Shown here: positions 4,138-51,834 of the stretch, piece after piece | Position numbering within the stretch: position 1 is the first letter of the stretch | How the letters are laid out: each line of letters starts with the position of its first letter | Source: Lentisphaerae bacterium GWF2_49_21 | GTDB taxonomy: Bacteria > Verrucomicrobiota > Lentisphaeria > Victivallales > GWF2-50-93 | DNA length: 64,000 nt | Assembly: GCA_001804805.1 (NCBI GenBank) | Contig: MHBH01000033.1 | Coordinates: 62,882-126,881, forward strand | Direction: 5' to 3' | Notes under the pieces: generated by a model | What the model saw: the letters and a program-made list of their open reading frames with translations, nothing else | The model's database searches: none | Told to the model about the DNA's origin: nothing | Position numbers and translations under genes: made by a program

Positions 4138-6111
4138 ATGCATAGAATCTTGAAAGGCATATTACTTCTTATGGCAGTTTCAAATATTGTATCTGCCGAA
4201 CAGAACTCAACAAGGAAACAGGATGCGTCTCCTGATTCCTATTTCGGAAAGCTCAAGCAGGAGTTCAAGGAGATCGGCGAGGCGTATTTCATTGGCGGTC
4301 TCAGCGAAGATGAGATCCTCGGCGGGATCGAGACCGGCGGCGGGATGGAGAAGTTCTTCGAGTCAACGGAAAAGGTGTCAAAGGAGATTATCCCTGCAGA
4401 AGGTATGCCATTCACAAAGGCGTGCAAATTCACAATATCCACGAAACCCAAGGTCTTCTGGGATGTCAGTTTCCAGCTGCTGAACAGGGAACCGGTGAAA
4501 AAAGGCGAAGCGATTCTGGTTGTTTTCTGGGCCAGGGGCAAGAAGGTTCCTCAAATAGTCGATGACGGCGCCGGCGCCACCTTCCAGTCTTATATCCAGT
4601 CAAGTATCGGAAAATTCCCCAAGGGCCGCGTAAACAACTTCTATGACTGCAAGATGCTCTCCGATAAATGGGAAAGATATTATATCAAAACAACTCCCCT
4701 GGCAATGGATTTCCCCGCAGGCAAGCTCGCACTGATCGGCATGATGGGGCATAAGGAGCAGACTGTCGAGGTAGGCGGTATCGCCTGGATGGCGTTCCCT
4801 GAAGGTGCGAATCTCGCAAAAATGCCGAAGCAGAGCTGGAATTATGAAGGACGCGCAGCCGACGCCCCTTGGCGCAAGGAGGCGGCGGAGCGGATAGGGA
4901 AGATCCGCAAGGGGAATATGTCAATAGAGGTTGTCGACGAAAAAGGACAGGCGGTAAATGATGCAGACGTCAAGATCCGGATGAAACAGCATGAATTTCG
5001 GTTCGGAGTCGCTGTCTCTGTGTCGGCTTTCACCGGCGGAAAGAAAAGTACGCCTGAAGATATTGCAAAATATCGCGAGACATCAACGGGATTCTTCAAC
5101 TCAATTGTCCTCGACAATCATCTCAAATGGGCATTTTTCGAAGGTGACCGGAAGAATGGATGGAAAGACACGAAGGAATGCCTGAAGTTCTACCATGACA
5201 ACGGAAAATATATTCGCGGGCATGTCCTGGTCTGGCCGACGGTATACAGGACGCCCGAATCCCTGAGGGACAAGTTCAAGGGGAACAAGGATCTCCTTGG
5301 AGAAACCGTGAGGAAACATGTCATCGAGGAAGTGTCTGAGTTCAAGGAATGGATCTCCGACTGGGATGTCACAAATGAAACCTCCGTAAACCGCGATTTC
5401 ATGGATACGCTGGGGCCTGAATCAATGCTTGATTGGTACAGGATCGCCCATGAGGCCGACCCGAAAACCGCCCTCACCTTCAATGAACCGGCTTTCGGAG
5501 CAGATGGAATGGAACTTGGAAGCTTCCCGGAAAAGATGCTCAGCGACAAATGCCGCGGTTGGGTGGACTACCTGATCCAGAAGAAAGCTCCTCTCTACTA
5601 TATAGGAAGCCAGTGCCATGGAGGATCGGTTGGCAAGGAATTCGGTGGCAAGACAGGTCCGGAGGGACTGTGGAAATATTTCGACCATCTATCCTCATAC
5701 TATGGAAAGAAACTGCAATACACGGAACTAGACGTAGGAATCGGGGATCCATCCGATCCGGACCAGCTCGCATATCAGGCGGATCTCCTGCGCGACACGA
5801 TGATCATCGCGTTCGCCCATCCTGCATTCGATGCGATCACTCAGTGGGGGTTCTGGGAAGGCTCACATTACGCTCCCGCCGCCGCCCTTTGGACGAAGGA
5901 TTGGAAGCTCAGGCCTGTCGGAGATGCTTATCTCAATCTGGTCTACAAGGACTGGTGGACGGATGCGGACCTGAAATCCGGCAAGGATGGGAAATGTTTG
6001 GCAAATGCATTTTTCGGAGATTACGAGATAACGGTCAATGGCAGGCCAAGGCCTGTTAAATATTCCGCCTTGGAAAAAGACAAGACCATCAGGATTGAAT
6101 TAAAACAGTAA
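4138..6111 (+). CDS. glycoside hydrolase family 10 (endo-beta-1,4-xylanase-like) with N-terminal CBM4_9-like module
   Basis: Signal peptide MHRILKGILLLMAVSNIVSAEQ from ATG 4138. GH10-type motifs NHLKWAFFE, RGHVLVWP, WDVTNE (acid/base Glu), YTELDV (nucleophile Glu) and TQWGFWE. Confidence 0.85.
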   Translation: MHRILKGILLLMAVSNIVSAEQNSTRKQDASPDSYFGKLKQEFKEIGEAYFIGGLSEDEILGGIETGGGMEKFFESTEKVSKEIIPAEGMPFTKACKFTISTKPKVFWDVSFQLLNREPVKKGEAILVVFWARGKKVPQIVDDGAGATFQSYIQSSIGKFPKGRVNNFYDCKMLSDKWERYYIKTTPLAMDFPAGKLALIGMMGHKEQTVEVGGIAWMAFPEGANLAKMPKQSWNYEGRAADAPWRKEAAERIGKIRKGNMSIEVVDEKGQAVNDADVKIRMKQHEFRFGVAVSVSAFTGGKKSTPEDIAKYRETSTGFFNSIVLDNHLKWAFFEGDRKNGWKDTKECLKFYHDNGKYIRGHVLVWPTVYRTPESLRDKFKGNKDLLGETVRKHVIEEVSEFKEWISDWDVTNETSVNRDFMDTLGPESMLDWYRIAHEADPKTALTFNEPAFGADGMELGSFPEKMLSDKCRGWVDYLIQKKAPLYYIGSQCHGGSVGKEFGGKTGPEGLWKYFDHLSSYYGKKLQYTELDVGIGDPSDPDQLAYQADLLRDTMIIAFAHPAFDAITQWGFWEGSHYAPAAALWTKDWKLRPVGDAYLNLVYKDWWTDADLKSGKDGKCLANAFFGDYEITVNGRPRPVKYSALEKDKTIRIELKQ

Positions 6112-6165
6112 GTCGGTTTTCAAACCGACATTTGAATTGTCGGGTTGAAACCCGACATACTTAAG
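6112..6165 (-). repeat. REP family 1 (two-hairpin element), inverted orientation
   Basis: Hairpins GTCGGTTT-TC-AAACCGAC (6112-6129) and GTCGGGTT-GA-AACCCGAC (6139-6156), followed by ATACTTAAG. The reverse complement matches the copies at 10867 and 37239. Confidence 0.85.
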
Positions 6166-6172
6166 AGGAAAT

Positions 6173-7504
6173 ATGAAAACAATATTTTTAACCATGTTCG
6201 TCCTATATGCTGCAATGGTTTGTTCCGCTGGAAATCCAAATCCCCTCCCAAATCCCGGATTCGAGGATGGCGACAGGATGTGGTCGTTCGGAGATTCTAC
6301 CTCGAAGCTGGTGCACGAAGCCGCCCATGAAGGGAAAAGCGGACTGCGCGTAGGGGACGAGGAATACAATGCTGATCCGGGATCAGTGACCAGCGCAAGG
6401 CTTCCGGTGAATCCCGGACAGGAAGTGACTCTGTCATTCTGGGCAAGAGGAAAGAACAAGAGCAGCGGTGCCTACATTTACTTCTATGATTCGGGCGGAA
6501 AAGTCATTTCGAAGCCCCAGCCAGCCCTCTGGCCTGCCAATGAGGATGGAGAGTGGCATCAGTATTCCCTTAAGGAAAAAGCTCCGGTAAATGGAACCTC
6601 GGTCGCGGTCTGGGTTCATTTTTCACCGGGCAACATCGGCATTACCGACTATGACGATTTCGCTTTTGAAGGAATAGATTCCGGAGTGACTGCCATTCCT
6701 CCACAGGCGTCCAGGGACAGGGTGAAGCCGAAGGAGGCTGTAAAGGATCTCCCACCTCGCAAGGAGCCGGCAGTGATAATCCTCAAGCTGGACGATCTTT
6801 CACAGAAAAACGGAAAAGTGCATCCATCCTGGCAGAAAATTTCGGATTTCCTCGAATCACGCAAGATAAAGGGATCCTTCGGTGTGGTATGTGAAAGCAT
6901 GCAGGATGCAAAGCCCGAATATGCGAACTGGATCAAGACGCGCCATGACTCAGGAGCCATTGAGTTCTGGTTCCATGGATGGGATCATGCTTCTCACAAT
7001 GAAGGCGGAAAATCATTGAGCGAATTCGACACGAGATCCTATGAGGAGCAGAAGAGCCGGTTCGACAGGTCGCAGAAGCTTGCGCTTGAGAAATTAGGTT
7101 TTGCATTCGAGACATTCGGTCCTGGCGGAGGCGGCTCGGGGCAGCATTTCGACGCCAATACATGCAAAGTGATGCAGGATGATCCATACATGAAGGCATG
7201 GCTTTACAACAAGCCAATCGACGATGATGGGAAAAAACTCCAGGAGGCCGGCAAGATAACGATTCTTGATCGCGTCTGGGAAGTGAACATTGAAGGTGCG
7301 GTAGGGGTTCCTGATTCAAAGAAGCTGATTGCAGGATACAAGAGCCATCCCGACAGGAAATATTTTGTGCTGCAGGGCCACCCTCAGATGTGGGCTGGAG
7401 CAAGGTTTGATGAGTTTGTAAAGATCATCGATTTCCTGACAGAGCAGAAATGCGTTTTCGTGACACCGATGGGATATGTGAATTCAATTAAGGGGGTAAA
7501 GTGA
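6173..7504 (+). CDS. secreted CBM4_9-like + polysaccharide-deacetylase-like (CE4/DUF2334-like) protein
   Basis: Signal peptide, then an NPGFEDG...DYDDFAF beta-sandwich-like module. The C-terminal domain has ILKLDDL and FHGWDHASH, resembling the NodB-type DD and H-x3-H metal motifs. It is paralogous to 8307-9101. Confidence 0.65.
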
Positions 7505-8265
7505 TTATGAGATTTATTGATTCTAGTTTTTTATTTTTTGGTGCAAAAAATAAAAAATATGTAATAGCCTTTACGCTTATCGAGCTCCTGGTCGTGATCG
7601 CGATCATCGCAATCCTTGCTGCGCTCCTTCTTCCGGCGTTGAAAGGCGCCAAGGACCAGGCGCAGGCGGTCATCTGCAAGAGCAACATGCGGCAGATCGG
7701 GATGAACGTCATAAGCTTTACAATCGACCGTGAAGGATATCTGCCGGTCTTCACCGGCGACGGCAAGACTGCAGGACACCGCGATGAAATATTTCCAGAT
7801 GATGCCAACATGACCAGCATGACTAACTTCTACAGGTGGTTCACGAATTTCACGAACAACGACAATTGTTTCTGGGATTATTATCAGCCGCTCAGCAAGA
7901 TGGTATGCCCGTCACACCCGCGGCATGATGCAATCCTCGCACAGGCCGGCTCCTGGGACGGCAATTCTTATGTGGTCAATGAAAGATTCTCCAGATGGCA
8001 GGTCGGTTACAAGCGCCAGACCATGATACATACTGTCGGTACTGAGAAGTTCATGCTGCTCGAAAGGACGGCCCTGACAGGTACGACATCGTATTCGTTC
8101 AGGTCGCTTTCCACCGGTACTCCGGGGAACATGATCCCTGACCAGATCGGGATACATCACAAGGGGACGAACGCCGTGTTTTTCGACGGGCATGTGGACT
8201 TTTTCCGGTTCACCCACATTCCACAATCCTGGAGCGATGCCCCGTTTGAGACGAAGTATTTCTGA
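7501..8265 (+). CDS. DUF1559-type pseudopilin-like protein
   Basis: Motifs: [45 protein letters not shown] and [18 protein letters not shown] 7501 overlaps the upstream stop; ATG 7507 is an alternative start. Confidence 0.85.
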
Positions 8266-8283
8266 AGGAAAATTTAAAATAAA

Positions 8284-8305
8284 GGAGCGCCGGCGTCTCG
8301 CCGGC
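8284..8305 (+). repeat. REP family 2 hairpin 22-mer GGAGCGCCGGCGTCTCGCCGGC
   Basis: Hairpin GCCGGCG-TCT-CGCCGGC. The identical 22-mer occurs in reverse orientation at 47945-47966. Confidence 0.9.
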
Positions 8306-8306
8306 A

Positions 8307-9101
8307 ATGATAAAAATGAAAATCTTTCGAATGCTATCGATTGCGATCGCTTCCGTATCGGTTGGTTTTGCAGCCTTTTCCGAGGATGCGACAAAAAAAC
8401 CGCAGGTCGTCATCCTGAAACTGGACGACCTTACTACGAAATTCCCGAGCAAGGACTGTCCTGCCGGCGCAAGATGGAAGAAGGTCGTCGACACCGTGGA
8501 GAAAAAGAAGATTAAGGCGTCTTTCGGGATAATCCTCAATTCCCTTGAGAAGGACAACCAGTCTTATTTCGACTGGATTAAAGAGCAGAATAAAAAGGGA
8601 AACATTGAATTTTGGAACCATGGAATGACGCATGCGGAAAACAAAGAGACCAAGGCACAGGAGTTCAACAAGGGTTCATCATACGAGGAACAGAAGGCGA
8701 CAATTGAAAAAGGGCAGAAGCTGGCGAAGGAGAAGCTCGGGATAACTCTTGCAACTATAGGAACGCCGTTCAACTCCTTCAGCGAAGACACTGAGAAGGC
8801 GCTCGAGGATTTTCCGGAGATAAAGATATGGTTCTTCGGTCCTGGGAAACCAAAGATCAGCAAGAAACTTATACTTGGAAGGGTGGTCAACCTTGAAAGT
8901 TCCGTCGGGAATCCCGATTTCGACAAGTTCAAGGAGTCTTATGAAGCTAAGGGTAAGGACAAGGAATACATCGTCCTGCAGGGCCATCCTCCGGCGTGGG
9001 ACGACAAGAAATACGAGAACTTCGAGAAGGTGATCGACTACCTGCTTGAAAAGGGCTGCGTATTCATGACTCCATCGGAATACGCCGCGGCGAAGAAATG
9101 A
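8307..9101 (+). CDS. secreted polysaccharide-deacetylase-like (CE4/DUF2334-like) protein
   Basis: Signal peptide MIKMKIFRMLSIAIASVSVGFAAFS. VVILKLDDL and FWNHGMTHA motifs parallel the C-terminal domain of 6173-7504. Confidence 0.65.
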   Translation: MIKMKIFRMLSIAIASVSVGFAAFSEDATKKPQVVILKLDDLTTKFPSKDCPAGARWKKVVDTVEKKKIKASFGIILNSLEKDNQSYFDWIKEQNKKGNIEFWNHGMTHAENKETKAQEFNKGSSYEEQKATIEKGQKLAKEKLGITLATIGTPFNSFSEDTEKALEDFPEIKIWFFGPGKPKISKKLILGRVVNLESSVGNPDFDKFKESYEAKGKDKEYIVLQGHPPAWDDKKYENFEKVIDYLLEKGCVFMTPSEYAAAKK

Positions 9102-10866: not shown

Positions 10867-10924
10867 AAGTATGTCGGGTTTTAACCCGACACGGGGTTGG
10901 CGGTTTAAAAACCGCCCTACTTAT
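10867..10924 (+). repeat. REP family 1 (two-hairpin element)
   Basis: AAGTATGTCGGGTTTTAACCCGAC-ACGGGG-TTGGCGGTTTAAAAACCGCCCTACTTAT; 58 nt, collinear with 37239-37296. Confidence 0.9.
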
Positions 10925-12856: not shown

Positions 12857-15667
12857 TCAGAGTTTGAATTCTACTGTGACTATCTTCCCTTTGCCAGCTT
12901 TTAGTTTGATGGCTCCGCCCTGCAGGGACAGCTTTTCAAGTCTCTCCTCGCTGAGTTTCGCCATATATGCGCTCTGGAATTTGAATCCGGGCTTGATAAG
13001 GCAGTCCTTCGGTTCCTCAGTCGGATTGTAGAATCTTACGATGACGCTGTTCCTGTCCTCGGCCTTCTTCACCGAGCTCAGGATGATATTGTCGCCTTCG
13101 ATCTCGAGGAAGCTGTTTTGAACCGGCAGGATTCCATGCTGTTTCCCGAACTGGCAGGCCTTCATTGGAGCATTGAATGAGAGAGACTGGTTGTAGAGTC
13201 CGGCCTTCTCCCATGTTCCCTTGTGGGGCATTACGGCGTATCTGAAACTGTAGCTGCCGAGTGACTGCGAACTTTCATCCCCGGGATATTCCATCCAGAG
13301 GCGGTTGTCGCAGGGGATCCTGAGCCTGACGCCCCTGATAAGCCCCATCGCCATCGTGCCGTTTGTGTCGTTCTCGAGGATCTCATAGTCCTTTGCGGCG
13401 TCCGAAAGGATCGCGAGCCCGTCCTTGCCGTCGCTCAGATCGAACCAGAGCTGGGCAGGATGGCGTGCAAGTTCGTTGCCTCTCATTTCGCCGGTGACTG
13501 TCGGCCTGACCGGGAATTCCGTCACCGAGAATGAACCTTCTGCCCAAGTCTTTTCCGCCTTGAGTCCTGTCGGGAAACATACTTTCAGGTAATGATCCCT
13601 GATGGTGTTTGTGATGGAAGTCTCGACTTCGAGATACGGGCTTCCCTTCTTCAGGAGGAGTTTTACGGTGACAGGCATATCCTTCAGGCATTCGGAGCGG
13701 CGTTGCTTGATCCAGTCGAGTTCGGAAGGAAGCTGGAGCGTCTGCTCGATCGTGAAGGAGACGGCCAGGGGGCCGTTCACGTTGACGGATATCCTTGCTG
13801 ATGCATTCAGGCTGTTGACCATGCTGTCGTTGCCGGGATTGCTGGACATCCACATGTTCCCCTTGTCGCCATGATCAAGGAAATAATTGAGGTTCCCGTA
13901 GGAACGTCCGGTCTTCTTGTCTGTGACGTTGAAGGTTCCATTGGCGTTGATATTCACGCGGATGAATTCATTTTCCGCCTCGCAGGGTCCGCTGAGGAGG
14001 TTCAGCGCATGTATGCGCGGGGCATCCCAGCCCTCGTGAGGGTAGGGGTATTCGTTCTTTTCAGTCCATTTGATCTTGTAGGTCTTGTAGCCGAGTGCGG
14101 GTACGTTCTGCGCCAGGAAATACAGATGGACATTGGTGCAGTAGAAAGGCATGTTGCGGCTGCGCGGGTGATAGATGCCTGCGCGTGTCTCATGCCGTTC
14201 GACTTCCTGCATCTGTACCGGTTTGCCGGACATGTCCTCTATTATGAGGTAATTGAGCCTTGCGTCGCGCGGAACGTCGACATAGGCTTCGACGACTTCG
14301 CTGCGCGGGAAGGATGACGGATTATTTACGCTGAGGAAGAATTCCGTGTCTGAAACTCCGCTGGTGTTGATCTCCTTCGTCAAGTTCTGGAGACCGCGGC
14401 GTTCAATGCCCTGTGCGATGACATGCGCCTGCTTGAGCCTGCTCATTTCGCCCTCGCCGAGGGTTTTCGGACCGAGTCCGTGCATGGAATCATGTGCGTG
14501 GCTCTGGAACATCAGCTTCCATATCTTTTCAAGATAGGTTGTAGGATATCTTTCAATTCCGAGGAGCCAGGAGAGCGTAGAGAGCGGCTCCGACCAGCGC
14601 ATGATCCTGTTTTCAGCATGGCTGTTTTCTATCATGATCTCGGGATGGATCGTGAATACGTCGGTGTGGATGGCGCCGACAGGACCGTCGCGCATCGGAC
14701 CCTTTACGACTGCAAGATCCTTGCGGTCCTTCAGGATTCCCTTGATCTCGTCCAGATAATCCTTGAGGGTGCTGTGCACGACATCATATTCGTCCTTGAA
14801 CTCCTCCTTGAAGGCCTTTATCATGTCGGCCATCAGGGGATGAGGCTCGGTGAAATCGGTGCCGTCGAAGAAGAGCACGGCTTCCGGCGCGGCAGTGCCT
14901 TCGACTGTCTTCAGGGTGCGTTCCATCGCCATCCGCAGATTGTCCTTGTTGAAGGATGTCTCCGGATCAAGTATGTCGTAGAACCATCCGTGTCCTTCAG
15001 GATCCGCGGTATGGAAGACCTTTCCGAGTTCGCCCCATTTGAACTGCCAGTCCTTGTGCCAGGCATCCTTGTCGTATACGAGCGGGATATGTCCTGCAAA
15101 GAAGAAGTTCCAGCGGGCTTCGCGCCCGAGCCTGGAAGCGAGTGCGCGCGTGCCGTCGGGCGCCTCCCATATGAATTCATGGTATTTGGACTTCTTTGGA
15201 TCCATGTGCTTATAGAATAGGATTGTATCGATGCCGAAGTTGGCGTAGATCTGCGGAAGCTGGGCGATCTGGCCGAAGGAGAAGACATTGTATCCGCATT
15301 TCAGTACATGTCCGTATTCCTTGGATTTCCTGACGCCGTAGAGGATGTTGCGGACGACGGATTCGCCCTGGATCGGGGCGCAGTCGGCGAGGGTGTACCA
15401 GGGGCCGAGTTCGAGGCGGCCGTCTTTTGCAAGCTTCTTGATCTCTTCGGTCTTTTCAGGCCTGATCTCGAGGTAGTCGTCGAGCATGGTGACCTGTCCG
15501 TCGAAGAGGAAGGACCTGTAGTCTTTTTTCTTCTTTATGATCTCGAGAAGCTTGTCGACACAGTCCACCAGACGCATGCGCGTCCTTTCAAATTCCCAGC
15601 GGAATTCCCTGTCCCAGTGAGTGTAGCTGACGATATGGATTCTCTTTTTCCCGGTCAAATTCTTCAT
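12857..15667 (-). CDS. glycoside hydrolase family 38 (alpha-mannosidase / mannosylglycerate-hydrolase-like)
   Basis: 936 aa. N-terminal IHIVSYTHWDREFRWEF is the GH38 metal-site motif; size and remaining architecture fit GH38. Confidence 0.88.
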   Translation of the reverse strand: MKNLTGKKRIHIVSYTHWDREFRWEFERTRMRLVDCVDKLLEIIKKKKDYRSFLFDGQVTMLDDYLEIRPEKTEEIKKLAKDGRLELGPWYTLADCAPIQGESVVRNILYGVRKSKEYGHVLKCGYNVFSFGQIAQLPQIYANFGIDTILFYKHMDPKKSKYHEFIWEAPDGTRALASRLGREARWNFFFAGHIPLVYDKDAWHKDWQFKWGELGKVFHTADPEGHGWFYDILDPETSFNKDNLRMAMERTLKTVEGTAAPEAVLFFDGTDFTEPHPLMADMIKAFKEEFKDEYDVVHSTLKDYLDEIKGILKDRKDLAVVKGPMRDGPVGAIHTDVFTIHPEIMIENSHAENRIMRWSEPLSTLSWLLGIERYPTTYLEKIWKLMFQSHAHDSMHGLGPKTLGEGEMSRLKQAHVIAQGIERRGLQNLTKEINTSGVSDTEFFLSVNNPSSFPRSEVVEAYVDVPRDARLNYLIIEDMSGKPVQMQEVERHETRAGIYHPRSRNMPFYCTNVHLYFLAQNVPALGYKTYKIKWTEKNEYPYPHEGWDAPRIHALNLLSGPCEAENEFIRVNINANGTFNVTDKKTGRSYGNLNYFLDHGDKGNMWMSSNPGNDSMVNSLNASARISVNVNGPLAVSFTIEQTLQLPSELDWIKQRRSECLKDMPVTVKLLLKKGSPYLEVETSITNTIRDHYLKVCFPTGLKAEKTWAEGSFSVTEFPVRPTVTGEMRGNELARHPAQLWFDLSDGKDGLAILSDAAKDYEILENDTNGTMAMGLIRGVRLRIPCDNRLWMEYPGDESSQSLGSYSFRYAVMPHKGTWEKAGLYNQSLSFNAPMKACQFGKQHGILPVQNSFLEIEGDNIILSSVKKAEDRNSVIVRFYNPTEEPKDCLIKPGFKFQSAYMAKLSEERLEKLSLQGGAIKLKAGKGKIVTVEFKL

Positions 15668-15771
15668 TGTCAGAGGCTCCTTTTTATGTGAAATAATTTT
15701 TTAGGTTCCTTTTATTTTCCTGATAAACATATCCGAAACAGGAATAAAATCAATACAATAACTATAAATAA

Positions 15772-15787
15772 ATACAATATTGTATTG
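15772..15787. promoter_or_regulatory. perfect 16-bp palindrome AATACAATATTGTATT (candidate operator)
   Basis: Lies in the AT-rich divergent GH38/LacI spacer. Further TACAAT/ATTGTA words flank it (CAATACAAT at about 15751, ATTGTATT at about 15792). Confidence 0.35.
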
Positions 15788-15903
15788 ATTATTGTATTTA
15801 TAGTCTGCTTGATGAGGACAACTGCAGGATAAATGAAAATATGAACATGGTTTATAAAATATTAATACAATAGGGAAATATATAAAATAGTTTTAAAATA
15901 GTC

Positions 15904-15932
15904 TTGACAATAACAAGTGATAATGTTATAAA
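15904..15932 (+). promoter_or_regulatory. sigma70-like promoter for the LacI gene
   Basis: TTGACA (15904-15909), 17-nt spacer, TATAAA (15927-15932). Followed immediately by palindrome ATTACAT-N5-ATGTAAT (15932-15950). Confidence 0.5.
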
Positions 15933-21605: not shown

Positions 21606-21730
21606 GTCTTCGCCTCAGAGGCTACGCCGAGGCAGGATGGGTGGTTGGAAATTTGAAATTGAAAAAAGAATGTGGAACAGGCGTCTCGCCTGTGTTAAGG
21701 AAGAAGGAAAATTACAGGCGGGACGCCTGT
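21606..21730 (+). repeat. REP family 2 composite element
   Basis: CTTCGCCTCAGAGGCTACGCCGAGGCAGG...TTGGAAATTTGAAATT...AGAATGTGGA-ACAGGCG-TCT-CGCCTGT (hairpin 21678-21694), plus a second hairpin ACAGGCG-GGA-CGCCTGT (21714-21730). Confidence 0.85.
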
Positions 21731-24106: not shown

Positions 24107-24216
24107 GGGATTTGAAATTAGAATGTAACACAGGCGTCTCGCCTGTGGATATTAAAAAATAGGAGCGCCGGCATCTTGCCGGCAATAAATTAATGCCAGC
24201 GAGACGCTGGCGCTCC
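24107..24216 (+). repeat. REP family 2 composite element (three hairpins)
   Basis: GATTTGAAATTAGAATGTAAC-ACAGGCG-TCT-CGCCTGT (24130-24146), then GGAGCGCC-GCCGGCA-TCT-TGCCGGC ... GCCAGCG-AGA-CGCTGGC-GCTCC (24162-24216). Confidence 0.85.
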
Positions 24217-24903: not shown

Positions 24904-25002
24904 CGCCTTCGCTGAGATGCTACGGCGTGGCAGGCCGGTGATTGGATTGTAATTTGGAATTGGAAATTTAATTAAGAATGTAGAACAGGCGTCTCGCCTG
25001 TG
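24904..25002 (+). repeat. REP family 2 composite element
   Basis: CGCCTTCGCTGAGATGCTACGGCGTGGCAGG...TTTGGAATTGGAAATTTAATTAAGAATGTAGA-ACAGGCG-TCT-CGCCTGT (hairpin 24985-25001). Collinear with 21606-21695. Confidence 0.85.
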
Positions 25003-25023
25003 ACATTTATTAAGAAGGAGAAC

Positions 25024-32666: not shown

Positions 32667-33602
32667 ATGAGTGTAACTCTCAGAGATGTGGCGAAGAAAG
32701 CAGGCGTGTCAATAGTGACCGCCAGCAGGGTTTTCAATGGAAAGGAATCCGTAAAGCCCGCTTTCAAAAAGAAGGTCTTTGATGCTGCAAAGTCTCTCAA
32801 CTATACTCCTAATCTGCTTGCCAGAGGCCTGGCAAAAAGCAATCTCAAGATTATTTCCGTCTACATGGGCGAACTTGAAAATCCATATTTCGGCAGCCTC
32901 GCCACCAACCTCGCAAAAGAATTCACGAAATACTCATATGAGCTCATAATCTGCGACTCCATCAGCAAGACTCTCGAACTGAACCGAAGCCTCGCCACTT
33001 CAGGAAGCGTACTCGTGTCATTCGGCAAAAAAGAAGTCCTCGAGAAAATCACTGAAACGCATCCGGTCGTCGGCATCTCCTGCACCATGACCGACAATGC
33101 GAACATACCCAACATTGATCTGGACTTCAAAGATGCATATACGGAGCTTTATGAGAGGGCGGTTTATTCCGACAAGGACAAGATCGCATTTTATTCACCT
33201 TTGCTGAGGCAGTATCCGCATCTTTCCGGGAGCAAGTTCATCCATGTCTATTCGGCAATGAAGAGAAAAGGGCATACGCCGGCCGGAGACCAGATCTTTG
33301 CGGATGATGATGCTGTCATCTCCTTCATGGAGCTCAGCCCCGGCTCGATTAACTGCGTTTTCTGCGAGAATGACATGCAGGCGGCCAGGCTCCATGGAAA
33401 ACTTATCAAAAAAGGATACAAGGTTCCCGAAGATGTAATCGTCATCGGATGCGACGGGACCTTAGTCCTTGATGGAATGTGGTCCGTAAAGATAGACACG
33501 GCGAAGATTGCGGCTAAGGCGGCCGAACTTTTCAGGGATCATGCGATAAACGGTGCAAGCAATGGAACTCATACAATAAAGCCTGAGCCGATTTACAAAT
33601 GA
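32667..33602 (+). CDS. LacI family transcriptional regulator
   Basis: HTH LRDVAKKAGVSIVTASRVFNGKESVKPAFKKKVFDAAKSLNYTPN plus a PBP1-like core (VFCENDMQAARLHG, DVIVIGCDG). Confidence 0.85.
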   Translation: MSVTLRDVAKKAGVSIVTASRVFNGKESVKPAFKKKVFDAAKSLNYTPNLLARGLAKSNLKIISVYMGELENPYFGSLATNLAKEFTKYSYELIICDSISKTLELNRSLATSGSVLVSFGKKEVLEKITETHPVVGISCTMTDNANIPNIDLDFKDAYTELYERAVYSDKDKIAFYSPLLRQYPHLSGSKFIHVYSAMKRKGHTPAGDQIFADDDAVISFMELSPGSINCVFCENDMQAARLHGKLIKKGYKVPEDVIVIGCDGTLVLDGMWSVKIDTAKIAAKAAELFRDHAINGASNGTHTIKPEPIYK

Positions 33603-33629
33603 GGAGAAGAAGCTGGATTGCTATTTGAC

Positions 33630-33866
33630 GACCCCCCAAGTATGTCCGGGGGTCTAGGTGTAACAGCCTTGCCCCCGGGCGTACTTCTTAAATTAGGAAG
33701 TGGCGAATGGAAAAGATGATGGATATAATTTTCAACGACCCCCCAAGTATGTCCGGGGATTTAGGTGTAACAGCCTTATCCCCGGGCGTACTTCTTAAAT
33801 TAGACCCCCCAAGCATGTCCGGGGATTTGGGTGTAACAGCCCTGTCCCCGGGCATGCTTTTTATTG
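33630..33866 (+). repeat. three copies of a 66-nt stem-loop unit (33630-33695, 33737-33802, 33803-about 33866)
   Basis: Unit: GACCCCCCAAGTATGTCCGGGGAT-TTAGGTGTAACAGCCTT-ATCCCCGGGCGTACTTCTTAAATTA. It forms a 16-bp stem with a conserved loop, and paired positions change together between copies (see findings). Confidence 0.9.
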
Positions 33867-33902
33867 AAGCATTACAGATGAGCTGACATACTTGAGAGAA
33901 GA

Positions 33903-33992
33903 GCGGATGCATGGATTGTTGGATGATTGAGTAATTAGAGGTTCGACTCCTTGTTTACTTTCCCGCAATCATCCAACACTCCAGTCATCCGC
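33903..33992 (+). other. 90-nt interrupted long hairpin (candidate structured RNA or MITE)
   Basis: Three helices: GCGGATG (33903-09) with CATCCGC (33986-92); TGGA with TCCA; and TGTTGGATGATTG (33917-29) with CAATCATCCAACA (33966-78). They enclose a 36-nt loop. Confidence 0.7.
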
Positions 33993-34007
33993 GACAAAAA
34001 TGAAAAA

Positions 34008-34040
34008 GGGCGTGCGAATTTCGCACGCCCTTTTCTTTTT
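34008..34040 (+). terminator. intrinsic terminator (usable on both strands)
   Basis: Perfect GGGCGTGCGAA-T-TTCGCACGCCC stem followed by TTTTCTTTTT; an A-run precedes it. Confidence 0.7.
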
Positions 34041-34154
34041 CCACCCCGGTCATCAGGTAGGGTTAAACCCCATGGCAGAAAACCGTTTGAAGATCTATAC
34101 TTCTACATTAACATTCCAGTTAATATTAAAATTCGGATCAACAAGGAGGGTATC

Positions 34155-34517
34155 ATGATCGAGCAGCTGAAGAAAAACATGTTTATCGGGATCGGCCTGA
34201 TGGCAATGACACGGACCAAAGTCATGGAATTCGGGAAAAAACTTGCCGAAGAGAGCAAGCTTTCAGAAGACGAGGGCGAGAAGCTTGTGAACGATCTGCT
34301 GAAACAGGCGGATGACATGAAAAATTATTTTGAGAAAAACTTTTCCAGTATCGTCGAAGAAAAAATGAAGAATGTCAAACTCCCGTGCAATGTCGGGTTC
34401 GAGAAGATGGGAAAGGAGATTAATGAGCTCAAAAGGACTCTCGCCAGGATTGAATCAAAATTAAATAAAAAGGATGCCCGGCCTAAGGCTGGGTCTGCCT
34501 GCAGCCCAAAAAAATAA
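34155..34517 (+). CDS. phasin-like small coiled-coil protein
   Basis: ATG 34155 with AAGGAGGG SD. MIEQLKKNMFIGIGLMAMTRTKVMEFGKKLAEESKLSEDEGEKLVNDLLKQ resembles phasin/PHA-granule regulator family proteins, which often precede UbiB-type kinases. The track ORF start at 33951 is an extension. Confidence 0.65.
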   Translation: MIEQLKKNMFIGIGLMAMTRTKVMEFGKKLAEESKLSEDEGEKLVNDLLKQADDMKNYFEKNFSSIVEEKMKNVKLPCNVGFEKMGKEINELKRTLARIESKLNKKDARPKAGSACSPKK

Positions 34518-37238: not shown

Positions 37239-37296
37239 AAGTATGTCGGGTTTCAACCCGACGTTTAATTGGTGGTTTAAAAACCACCTTACTTAT
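37239..37296 (+). repeat. REP family 1 (two-hairpin element)
   Basis: AAGTATGTCGGGTTTCAACCCGAC-GTTTAA-TTGGTGGTTTAAAAACCACCTTACTTAT. Confidence 0.9.
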
Positions 37297-37300
37297 CAAT

Positions 37301-37333
37301 AAAAAAAGGCGTGCAGTTTCCTGCACGCCTTTT
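37301..37333. terminator. bidirectional intrinsic terminator between Nif3 (+) and groEL (-)
   Basis: AAAAAAA-GGCGTGCAG-TTTC-CTGCACGCC-TTTT. Confidence 0.75.
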
Positions 37334-46855: not shown

Positions 46856-47938
46856 ATGGGAAACGTATATTTCGCAAGTTCTGCGTTCAAGAGGCTTGAA
46901 GCCGAAGCGACTCTTCCAGCAAAATTCAACAGGATGCTGAAGAAATCACTGCCACAGGACAGATTCAAGAACAAGAAAATCTGTATCAAGATGCATCTCG
47001 GTGGGAATCTCGGTTACACTACAATCCATCCGTTCTTCATCAGGCAGCTCGTAGAGCACATCAAGAAGGGGAATCCGAAATCCGTCTTCGTATGCGATGG
47101 AGACGCCAACAACTGCGAATGGCGCGGTTACACCGAGAAATCCCTTGGAGCTCCGATCGTAGGCCTCTTCAGGAAAAATCATCCTCCGCTGAAAACATTT
47201 AAAATCGGCTTCCAGACCCTAAACGAGGCAAAGGTGTCGCAGGAAGTCCTTGACGCCGACATGATGATCGTGCTGAGCCATGTCAAGGGGCACGGAGACT
47301 GCGGATTCGGCGGGGCATGCAAGAACATCGCGATGGGTGTCGTCCCTGGAGAGACTAGGGCGAAGATCCACAAGCTCGAAGGAGGAATAAAATGGGACAA
47401 GTCAAAATGCATCCATTGCGGGAAATGCATTAAGGAATGCAGGAACAAAGCCAACAAATTCACCAAGGACGGCAACTACGAGATCTTCTACCACCACTGC
47501 ACATATTGCTGGCACTGCGTGATGTCCTGTCCGGTGAAGTCCCTGACCCGCACTGGAAACTCCTTCCAGCCTTTCCAGGAAGGGTTGGCGCTTGTTACCA
47601 AGGCTGTGGTCGACGATATGGGCGCGAAGAACATCTTCTACATAAATGTCCTCATGAACATAACGATCTTCTGCGACTGCTGGGGCATGAGTACGCCGTC
47701 GCTGGTTCCCGACATCGGGATCCTTGCATCGGACAATCTTGCCGGCATCGAGAAGGCGACCCTTGATCTGATCAAGACGGAGGACTTGCTGAAATCAGGA
47801 CTTCCCGTCGGGCGCAAACTTCTTTCCGGGAAACATCTCTTCGAGAAGATCCACAGGAAGGATCCATATCTTATAACTGGGATACTTGAGAAGAAGAAGC
47901 TTGGATCGAGGAAGTATAAGATGCTGGAGATAGGATGA
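46856..47938 (+). CDS. DUF362-domain protein with 2x[4Fe-4S] ferredoxin insert
   Basis: ATG 46856 with AAAGGAGG SD. Cys clusters CIHCGKCIKEC and CTYCWHCVMSCP. Confidence 0.8.
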   Translation: MGNVYFASSAFKRLEAEATLPAKFNRMLKKSLPQDRFKNKKICIKMHLGGNLGYTTIHPFFIRQLVEHIKKGNPKSVFVCDGDANNCEWRGYTEKSLGAPIVGLFRKNHPPLKTFKIGFQTLNEAKVSQEVLDADMMIVLSHVKGHGDCGFGGACKNIAMGVVPGETRAKIHKLEGGIKWDKSKCIHCGKCIKECRNKANKFTKDGNYEIFYHHCTYCWHCVMSCPVKSLTRTGNSFQPFQEGLALVTKAVVDDMGAKNIFYINVLMNITIFCDCWGMSTPSLVPDIGILASDNLAGIEKATLDLIKTEDLLKSGLPVGRKLLSGKHLFEKIHRKDPYLITGILEKKKLGSRKYKMLEIG

Positions 47939-47944
47939 AGAACT

Positions 47945-47966
47945 GCCGGCGAGACGCCGGCGCTCC
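47945..47966 (-). repeat. REP family 2 22-mer (reverse complement identical to 8284-8305)
   Basis: GCCGGCGAGACGCCGGCGCTCC, between convergent genes. Confidence 0.9.
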
Positions 47967-51674: not shown

Positions 51675-51706
51675 TTTGTTCGGTAGTAGCGCAATTTATT
51701 GCGCGT
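51675..51706 (+). repeat. REP family 4-like single unit
   Basis: TTTTGTTCGGTAGTAGCGCAATTTATTGCGCG (flank plus hairpin GCGCAAT-TT-ATTGCGC). Confidence 0.6.
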
Positions 51707-51712
51707 TGAGTA

Positions 51713-51745
51713 GGTACGTGCTTTAGCATGTACCATCTTTGTTTT
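51713..51745 (+). terminator. probable intrinsic terminator after sod
   Basis: GGTACGTGC-TTTA-GCATGTACC (one G-U) followed by ATCTTTGTTTT. Confidence 0.55.
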
Positions 51746-51834
51746 AAGAATGGGACAGGCTAAAGCCCGTCCCTACTTCAAGAACGCTCGAACACGAGAT
51801 ACTACAAACGAAAGAATTAACATAAAAGGGAAAA

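Follow-up and report, generated by a model that had tools for sequence, protein, structure and literature searches.

The locus described here lies within a 64,000-nucleotide stretch of DNA, analyzed as a whole and hereafter called the window, which matches the groundwater-metagenome contig ENA ERZ909592 and whose UbiB homologues point to the Lentisphaeria/Victivallales. On its + strand, a gene encoding a LacI-family regulator of 311 amino acids (lacI311; 32667..33602) is followed by three hairpin units at 33630..33695, 33737..33802, and 33803..33868, which form an array in the presumed 3′ UTR of the gene. The lacI311 stop codon is located 27 nt upstream of unit 1, and 35 nt upstream of the first hairpin foot. 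Three further features follow the array, namely the short sequence GACATACTT (33885..33893, + strand), which is perfectly complementary to AAGTATGTC, the foot of units 1 and 2, a long hairpin with 27-nt arms and a T-loop-like apex (33903..33992, + strand; −44.7 kcal/mol, z −7.2), and a bidirectional intrinsic terminator, AAAAGGGCGTGCGAATTTCGCACGCCCTTTT (34004..34034), of a type that recurs in the lineage and that would end the lacI311-array transcript. The next gene (34155..34517, + strand) encodes a weakly phasin-like protein of 120 amino acids, whose match to the Phasin family falls under the cut-off (E 0.0016). This gene lies outside the repeat, has its own conserved upstream box, and is the first of a pair with ubiB, which is followed by a NIF3-family gene and then by groEL/groES/dnaK on the opposite strand. 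The units are extragenic, being placed between the lacI311 stop (33602) and the start of the phasin-like gene (34155) with no conserved ORF overlapping them. Two assemblies made independently (ENA ERZ909592 and Logan SRR3309375) contain the array sequence without a single difference, which rules out an assembly artefact.

In a 69-nt register, the direct copies occupy positions 33628-33696, 33735-33803, and 33801-33869, with copies 2 and 3 being 94% and 78% identical to copy 1, respectively. In the 64-kb window, GGTGTAACAGCC (loop) and GACCCCCCAAGYATGTCCGGGG (5′ arm) are each present three times, in the array only, against expected counts of 0.18 and 0.00. In each unit, a short, variable spacer separates the arm AAG(T/C)ATGTCCGGGG(G/A) from a second arm that is inverted and imperfectly complementary to it, and a 5′ flank (GACCCCC) and a 3′ flank (CTTCTTA...) are repeated together with each hairpin. 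Folding of the + strand yielded, for every copy, a 16-bp stem, a 2-nt bulge, a 4-bp stem, and a 6-nt loop, with energies of −32.9 to −37.6 kcal/mol (z −5.9 to −6.4) that were matched by none of 200 shuffled sequences; the − strand fold is much weaker (z −0.9 to −2.5). The hairpin of unit 1 (33638-33686) is bounded by the 5′ flank GACCCCCC and the 3′ tail CTTAAATTAG, and the unit scores 85.7 bits with the covariance model R1 (see below). Unit 2 (hairpin 33745-33793) belongs to a 107-nt duplication with unit 1. Unit 3 (hairpin 33811-33859) directly adjoins unit 2 and ends in a tail, CTTTTTATTG, that resembles a terminator U-tract; it reads CUUUUUAUU, and the tails of the remaining units read CUUCUU(A/U)AUU. 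None of the units was listed on the + strand by an intrinsic-terminator scan, because the scanning tool is unable to score bulged stems. A preliminary description of this DNA had proposed three tandem 66-nt stem-loops, the second and third abutting, each with a 16-bp stem. The repeat and fold analyses confirmed the arrangement, + strand folding reproduced the stem, and the four co-varying pairs that had been named proved correct when read base by base (12:54, T-A/C-G; 23:43, G-C/A-T; 27:40, A-T/G-C; 14:52, T-G/T-A).

Two related MAGs of the Victivallales/Lentisphaeria carry, at the corresponding locus, a total of five homologous units. These array-bearing relatives were identified by synteny, as contigs that encode a UbiB 91-92% identical to that of the window and that also encode lacI311. 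One relative (L008/L009/L010, represented by GCA_003516325.1 and two metagenomes, and referred to below as L008) carries three units with a period of 113-114 nt, and the other (L011, GCA_049297395.1) carries two units 127 nt apart. The eight distinct units from the three genomes align without gaps. The outer 16-bp stem is paired in 128 of 128 cells of this alignment, and across all 21 modelled pairs 94% of the cells are paired. Changes on both sides of the pair occurred at six of the 21 modelled pairs, four of them in the outer stem. Neither the observed paired fraction nor the covariation score was attained by any of 500 column shuffles, sliding the 3′ partners by 1-3 columns left only 29-51% pairing, and RNAalifold independently yielded the same stem. 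The stem columns have accumulated approximately 16 substitutions with no broken pair, an outcome that is very unlikely in the absence of selection for pairing. Wobbles are found at seven pair positions, and all are G·U on the + strand, with no A·C, indicating that the + strand, which is the sense strand for both flanking genes, is the one that matters. G·U-only wobbles fit an RNA, and are compatible with a single-stranded DNA form as well. Pairing is thus kept by selection on the fold of one strand. Selection on the fold had been put forward from the three window copies; it is strengthened here by the compensatory changes in the five homologous units and by the + strand G·U wobbles, and the homologues do co-vary, where a lack of covariation among them had been named beforehand as an argument against it.

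Conservation is distributed very unevenly along the unit. Between the window and its relatives, identity is 84% in the stem arms and 79% in the short flanks, but it drops to 36%, essentially the random level, in the apical 17 nt. The corresponding nucleotide identities of the lacI311 and ubiB genes are 73.6% and 89.5%, and no alignment was possible for the spacers between units. The apex reads AGGU-GUAACA-GCCU in the window and (A)GCC-G(A/C/U)AA-GGC, with a GNRA tetraloop, in the relatives, in the same register. The loop that had been described as invariant is therefore fixed within this genome only, and the features kept across genomes are the stem, a small cap at its tip, and the flanking single-stranded stretches, of which GACCCCC and CUUCUUA are invariant or nearly so in all eight units. 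The number of copies is three in the window (periods of 107 and 66 nt), three in L008, and two in L011, and units from one genome resemble each other more closely than units from different genomes. Such variation in copy number and period, together with within-genome likeness, is typical of the turnover seen in repeats.

The array is syntenic in all three genomes, beginning 15-27 nt past the lacI311 stop and co-oriented with the gene. A covariance model (R1) built from the eight units was used to scan the 64-kb window, about 43 kb of the L008 genome, and about 160 kb of DNA from further relatives, and it matched the syntenic units only. The scan of this genome and its relatives that the preliminary description had proposed thus recovered the syntenic locus alone, within the contigs covered. 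In relatives whose UbiB is 80-89% identical, dnaJ rather than lacI311 lies upstream of the phasin-like gene, and the array is absent. Conversely, lacI311 orthologues at 57-65% identity have an N_methyl-domain gene directly downstream and no array, and one of these orthologues shares its genome with a dnaJ-type ubiB locus. No further array-bearing lineages were found among the lower-identity UbiB and lacI311 homologues examined. From these gene orders, the array appears to be restricted to a narrow Victivallales clade, and to sit exactly at the junction that joins lacI311 to the phasin-like/ubiB pair. More distant scans gave no indication of a wider family. A search for the window loop with GGGG/CCCC flanks returned two matches in genome_contigs and three in metagenome_contigs, all of them single hairpins in unrelated taxa and chance-like, so that this is not a widespread motif, and a scan of viral_contigs with the 5′ arm gave no match.

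In the window, but not in its relatives, unit 3 is separated from the terminator by a 135-nt insertion that includes the 33903-33992 hairpin. Since this hairpin is missing at the syntenic site in both L008 and L011, the insertion is specific to the window genome. The hairpin tip, GAGG-UUCGACU-CCUU, resembles a tRNA T-arm, and a stretch partly similar to the hairpin is located upstream of the phasin-like gene in another relative (L015). A tRNA or tmRNA origin was considered and rejected, as neither ARAGORN nor Rfam identified one. In the minimum free energy fold of the whole 3′ UTR, GACATACTT pairs with the 5′ arm of unit 1 and encloses units 2 and 3; GACATACTT represents either what is left of a REP-like end or an alternative pairing partner at long range.

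The array is probably co-transcribed with lacI311, because it begins 15-27 nt past the stop codon, with no promoter-like site and no terminator in between, and is followed by a canonical terminator. The promoter search, for sigma-70-like sites between the lacI311 stop and unit 1, is to be read with the caveat that promoter types are poorly known in this phylum. In the two relatives, the standard terminator of the lineage, GGCGTGCG..CGCACGCC, lies within about 20 nt after the array. Terminators of this type (an A-run, GGCGTGCG, a loop, CGCACGCC, and a T-run) recur at many unrelated gene ends in the clade, including window positions 34009-34029 and 37308-37329, L008 9481 and 12282, L011 579 and 3892, and, in other relatives, L014 1122 and 7310 and L020 601. 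The units share with intrinsic terminators a G+C-rich stem followed by a U-rich tail. However, the stem of a unit, at 16 + 4 bp and −33 to −38 kcal/mol, is much longer than that of a terminator and contains an internal loop, and the units are present in three copies, beyond which there is a canonical terminator in any case. Upstream of the phasin-like/ubiB pair, a box, AAGGTAGGGTTATACCCCAT (window 34053-34078), is conserved in nearly all relatives regardless of which gene lies upstream, with syntenic sites in L008, L011, L013, L014, L020, and L022. The box contains CCCCAT, which is reminiscent of a −10 element of the heat-shock sigma-32 type, and its locus adjoins dnaJ, dnaK, and groESL.

The preliminary description stated that the unit resembles no other repeat family in the window. 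This did not hold, since the ends of the units share AAGTATGTC with a dispersed family. Units 1 and 2 have the 9-mer AAGTATGTC at their foot; it is present in seven copies in the window, where chance would give 0.29, and the units and the dispersed elements have a terminal AAGTATGTC...TACTT in common. Members of the dispersed family, 55-60 nt in length, consist of AAGTATGTCGGGTTTYAACCCGAC, a linker, and GGYGGTTTAAAAACCRCC, followed by YTACTT. They form doublets of two small hairpins with AAGTA heads facing outward, and in this respect are REPIN-doublet-like. Copies were located in the window at 6107-6162 (−), 10867-10922 (+), and 37239-37294 (+), and in relatives at L008 6443-6498 (−) and L026 ~7400-7462 (−) and ~14085-14144 (−), that is, in both orientations relative to neighboring genes and at about one copy per 15-20 kb. 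The doublet at 37239, like the array, is followed by a GGCGTGC...GCACGCC terminator. The second hairpin of the doublets co-varies (GGCGG/CCGCC vs GGTGG/CCACC). Units and doublets are alike in the 5′ end AAGTATGTC(C)GGG, the 3′ end TACTT(A/C)T, and an intergenic position. They differ in that the doublets form two small AAGTA/TACTT-closed hairpins rather than one long stem, are found in both orientations, are not flanked by GACCCCC, and stand singly instead of in tandem. Moreover, unit 3 and the relatives carry AAGCATGTC (AAGCAT) rather than AAGTATGTC, and the GTA of the head is not conserved, so the shared 9-mer may be derived, or a product of gene conversion. The link between the array and the dispersed doublets, as read from these terminal sequences, is suggestive.

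Other repeats in the same genomes have AGTAG, AGTAA, or AGTAT heads followed by a palindrome. At window positions 51680-51778, three REP-like hairpins are clustered in an intergenic region; all have (G/A)AGTAG heads and TTTA loops, and two are arranged as a heads-out doublet. In relative L017, at least eight tandem copies of a GAGTAG-headed REP of about 30 nt, ATGAGTAG-GGCGGGC-TTTCCA-GCCCGTC, are found at 15711-15925, at the contig end, and a single copy of the ATGAGTAG REP adjoins a long 9-nt tandem repeat, (TTCAACGMY)n, at 7340-7550. The palindromes CAGGCGTCTCGCCTG and GCCGGCGTCTCGCCGGC form the core of other short repeats in the window (24107-24165, 21654-21712, 24962-25020, 8274-8308, and 47930-47964), which are probably further terminator or REP-like hairpins. 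The doublets, the GTAG-headed hairpins, and the L017 array together indicate that these genomes are rich in REP/REPIN-like elements, tandem arrays included. A scan for AGTA-headed hairpins as such found 10, compared with a shuffled mean of 7.6, which is no excess; the informative features are therefore only the heads-out doublet organization and the excess of the 9-mer.

REPINs have been defined as two inverted REPs that form a hairpin (Bertels & Rainey 2011; PMC3116915, PMC3337134). In tandem REPIN clusters, nearly identical REPINs are repeated together with their 5′ and 3′ flanks, with unrepeated DNA between them and up to 4-5 units per cluster, and some doublets with A/T flanks have apparently been co-opted as terminators (PMC3116915, PMC3337134). 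The array corresponds to the REPIN clusters and BIMEs of Pseudomonas fluorescens SBW25 and E. coli in several respects: it is extragenic, two inverted arms form a long hairpin (a 16-bp imperfect stem in all eight units), and the units stand in direct tandem with a 5′ flank and a shorter 3′ flank, 2-5 per cluster, sometimes with unrepeated DNA between them. The GACCCCC and CTTCTTA flanks are repeated with the hairpin in the manner described in PMC3116915, and likeness is higher within a genome than between genomes. Some members of the REPIN and BIME groups have likewise been co-opted as terminators or mRNA stabilizers. On the other hand, the array arms, AAG(T/C)ATGTCCGGGGG, have no hairpin or palindromic core of their own and begin with AAGTAT or AAGCAT rather than GTAG. 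The exact unit is found at one locus, and its host, a Lentisphaeria MAG, is not a proteobacterium. Because the scanned contigs yielded a single locus, high-copy dispersal, one of the defining traits of REPs, is unsupported for the exact unit. An ordinary REP/MITE, dispersed over the genome, had been named at the outset as the reading opposed to a structured RNA. This is partly borne out, by the terminal 9-mer and the tandem-REPIN anatomy, and partly not, since the exact unit occurs at one locus only. By analogy, the array has the appearance of a tandem REPIN cluster and probably behaves as one, although membership of that class is not claimed as established, and overall it looks like an extragenic palindromic tandem cluster of an already known kind in an uncultured lineage.

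The reading that we favor, to which we give an even chance, is that of a tandem REPIN-like extragenic palindrome cluster located in a co-transcribed 3′ UTR, the stem-loops of which act in cis. The cluster would have arisen by local tandem duplication at the rearrangement junction between lacI311 and the phasin-like/ubiB pair. It would be transcribed on the + strand with lacI311 as part of the 3′ UTR, between the stop codon and the canonical terminator. The hairpins may have been kept as stable cis stem-loops that block 3′-to-5′ exonucleases, they may add partial termination, for which unit 3 has a proper U-tract, and they may insulate lacI311 from the newly joined downstream operon. Both the transcription of the array and its function in cis are inferred from this arrangement. 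Roles of this kind for REP/BIME elements in enterobacteria were reportedly described by Newbury and co-workers in 1987 and by Espeli and co-workers in 2001 (the latter as cited in PMC3337134). A simple barrier role does not account for the single-stranded GACCCCC flank, which is invariant.

A different account of the same hairpins, possible but on balance improbable, is that they act as DNA only. The unit would then be a selfish element whose single-stranded DNA hairpin is recognized by a Y1 (RAYT/IS200-like) transposase, the RNA would have no function, and pairing and flanks would be maintained by the transposition mechanism or by homogenization from master copies. The wobbles are compatible with such an element, as G·T pairs form in single-stranded DNA too and Y1 transposases act on a single strand. 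Recognition of IS200/IS605 and REP elements typically involves conserved flanks beside the hairpin foot, and such flanks speak for it as well, as do the occurrence of the related doublet family in both orientations relative to flanking genes and the position of the array at a rearrangement junction. However, mobility fits poorly with a single known locus, and with units that are all co-oriented with the flanking genes. The array is, in addition, syntenic in three genomes that have diverged to 73.6% nucleotide identity in lacI311, with pairing intact throughout the units, which points to selection acting on these very copies.

The preliminary description had suggested, as a candidate, a protein-sequestering decoy with a conserved loop. 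In its general form, this reading holds that the array yields an independent, trans-acting sRNA or protein sponge, in which the hairpins or the C-rich flanks either sequester an RNA-binding protein or engage targets by base pairing. The selected + strand fold, the (nearly) invariant single-stranded GACCCCC and CUUCUUA flanks in all eight units, and the terminator downstream of the array would all suit such an RNA, and the repeated-hairpin architecture is reminiscent of CsrB/RsmZ, in which several like hairpins also stand in a row on one strand and are followed by a terminator. The pattern of conservation points the other way. The apex is the least conserved part of the unit (36% identity, compared with 84% in the stems), with GUAACA as the loop in the window versus G(A/C/U)AA in the relatives, and replacement of the apical loop while stem and flanks are kept is the opposite of what a loop-reading sponge predicts. 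Unlike CsrB/RsmZ, the array shows no conserved loop motif, no GGA, no detectable promoter between the lacI311 stop and unit 1, and no Rfam match, and its phyletic range is very narrow, the array being missing in close relatives that keep both flanking genes. The decoy proposal is therefore not sustained, and a trans-acting sponge is unlikely. Lower still in our estimate is a lineage-specific regulatory RNA, in which modules made up of the GACCCCC run, the 16-bp stem, and the GNRA-like tip would be released in three copies from the lacI311 3′ UTR and, by way of the invariant C-rich flank, bind target RNAs or a protein.

At the Rfam gathering and E-value thresholds, no family matches the array, and a tRNA elsewhere in the window is the only match that passes; within 33400-34250, every match scores far under the threshold and coincides with the terminator or with the hairpin with 27-nt arms.

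The possibility that the repeat encodes a repeated peptide was also considered. The unit length is divisible by 3, corresponding to 22 codons, gene callers predict in public assemblies a 59-aa ORF (33707-33886) that covers units 2 and 3 and contains two copies of DPPSMSGDLGVTALSPG, and several of the differences between copies are synonymous in its frame. However, units 2 and 3 are not in frame with unit 1, four of the five units of the relatives have an internal stop codon in the frame of the ORF, and no frame with a start codon is open across all units. Among 5.8 billion proteins, no homologue of the ORF other than itself was found, and phmmer against 1.84 billion representatives returned only unrelated long repeat proteins, RCC1-like and HYR-like. 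The 59-aa ORF is a spurious translation of units 2 and 3, and is effectively refuted as a peptide, which leaves the peptide reading barely credible; the earlier statement that the locus contains no plausible ORF overlooked this gene-caller prediction, and was right in that the ORF is not a real one. Read-through of the lacI311 stop into unit 1 was rejected, being in frame in the window with a frame relation that is not kept in L008. A type III toxin-antitoxin-like system (ToxI/ToxN style) has the same order of tandem direct repeats, terminator, and small gene, with antitoxin RNA repeats preceding a toxin gene, but deserves next to no credence here, since the 120-aa gene has no ToxN, AbiQ, or PADLOC match and is conserved with ubiB in relatives without repeats, and since the units are stable hairpins of 66 nt rather than ~36 nt. 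It was rejected, on anatomy, Pfam/PADLOC, and Rfam, together with integron attC sites (no R″/R′ core sites, RYYYAAC...GTTRRRY), CRISPR (no short repeats with similar-sized unique spacers, and units 2 and 3 abut spacer-free), and group II intron domain V.

At the level of annotation, the array illustrates how gene callers convert a repeat into a spurious 59-aa protein. If the regulatory-RNA reading were true, the array would represent, for the PVC superphylum, a new multi-hairpin sponge that derives from a 3′ UTR and originated as a REP-like element. The reading of a REPIN-like cluster in the lacI311 3′ UTR opens no new class of RNA and addresses no long-standing question, and it helps in understanding the co-option of extragenic repeats. 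If true, it would provide a clean and datable example, from uncultured Lentisphaeria, of a REP/REPIN-like palindrome that settled at a rearrangement junction, was amplified in tandem, and was then retained by selection as a strand-specific stem-loop in the 3′ UTR of a gene.
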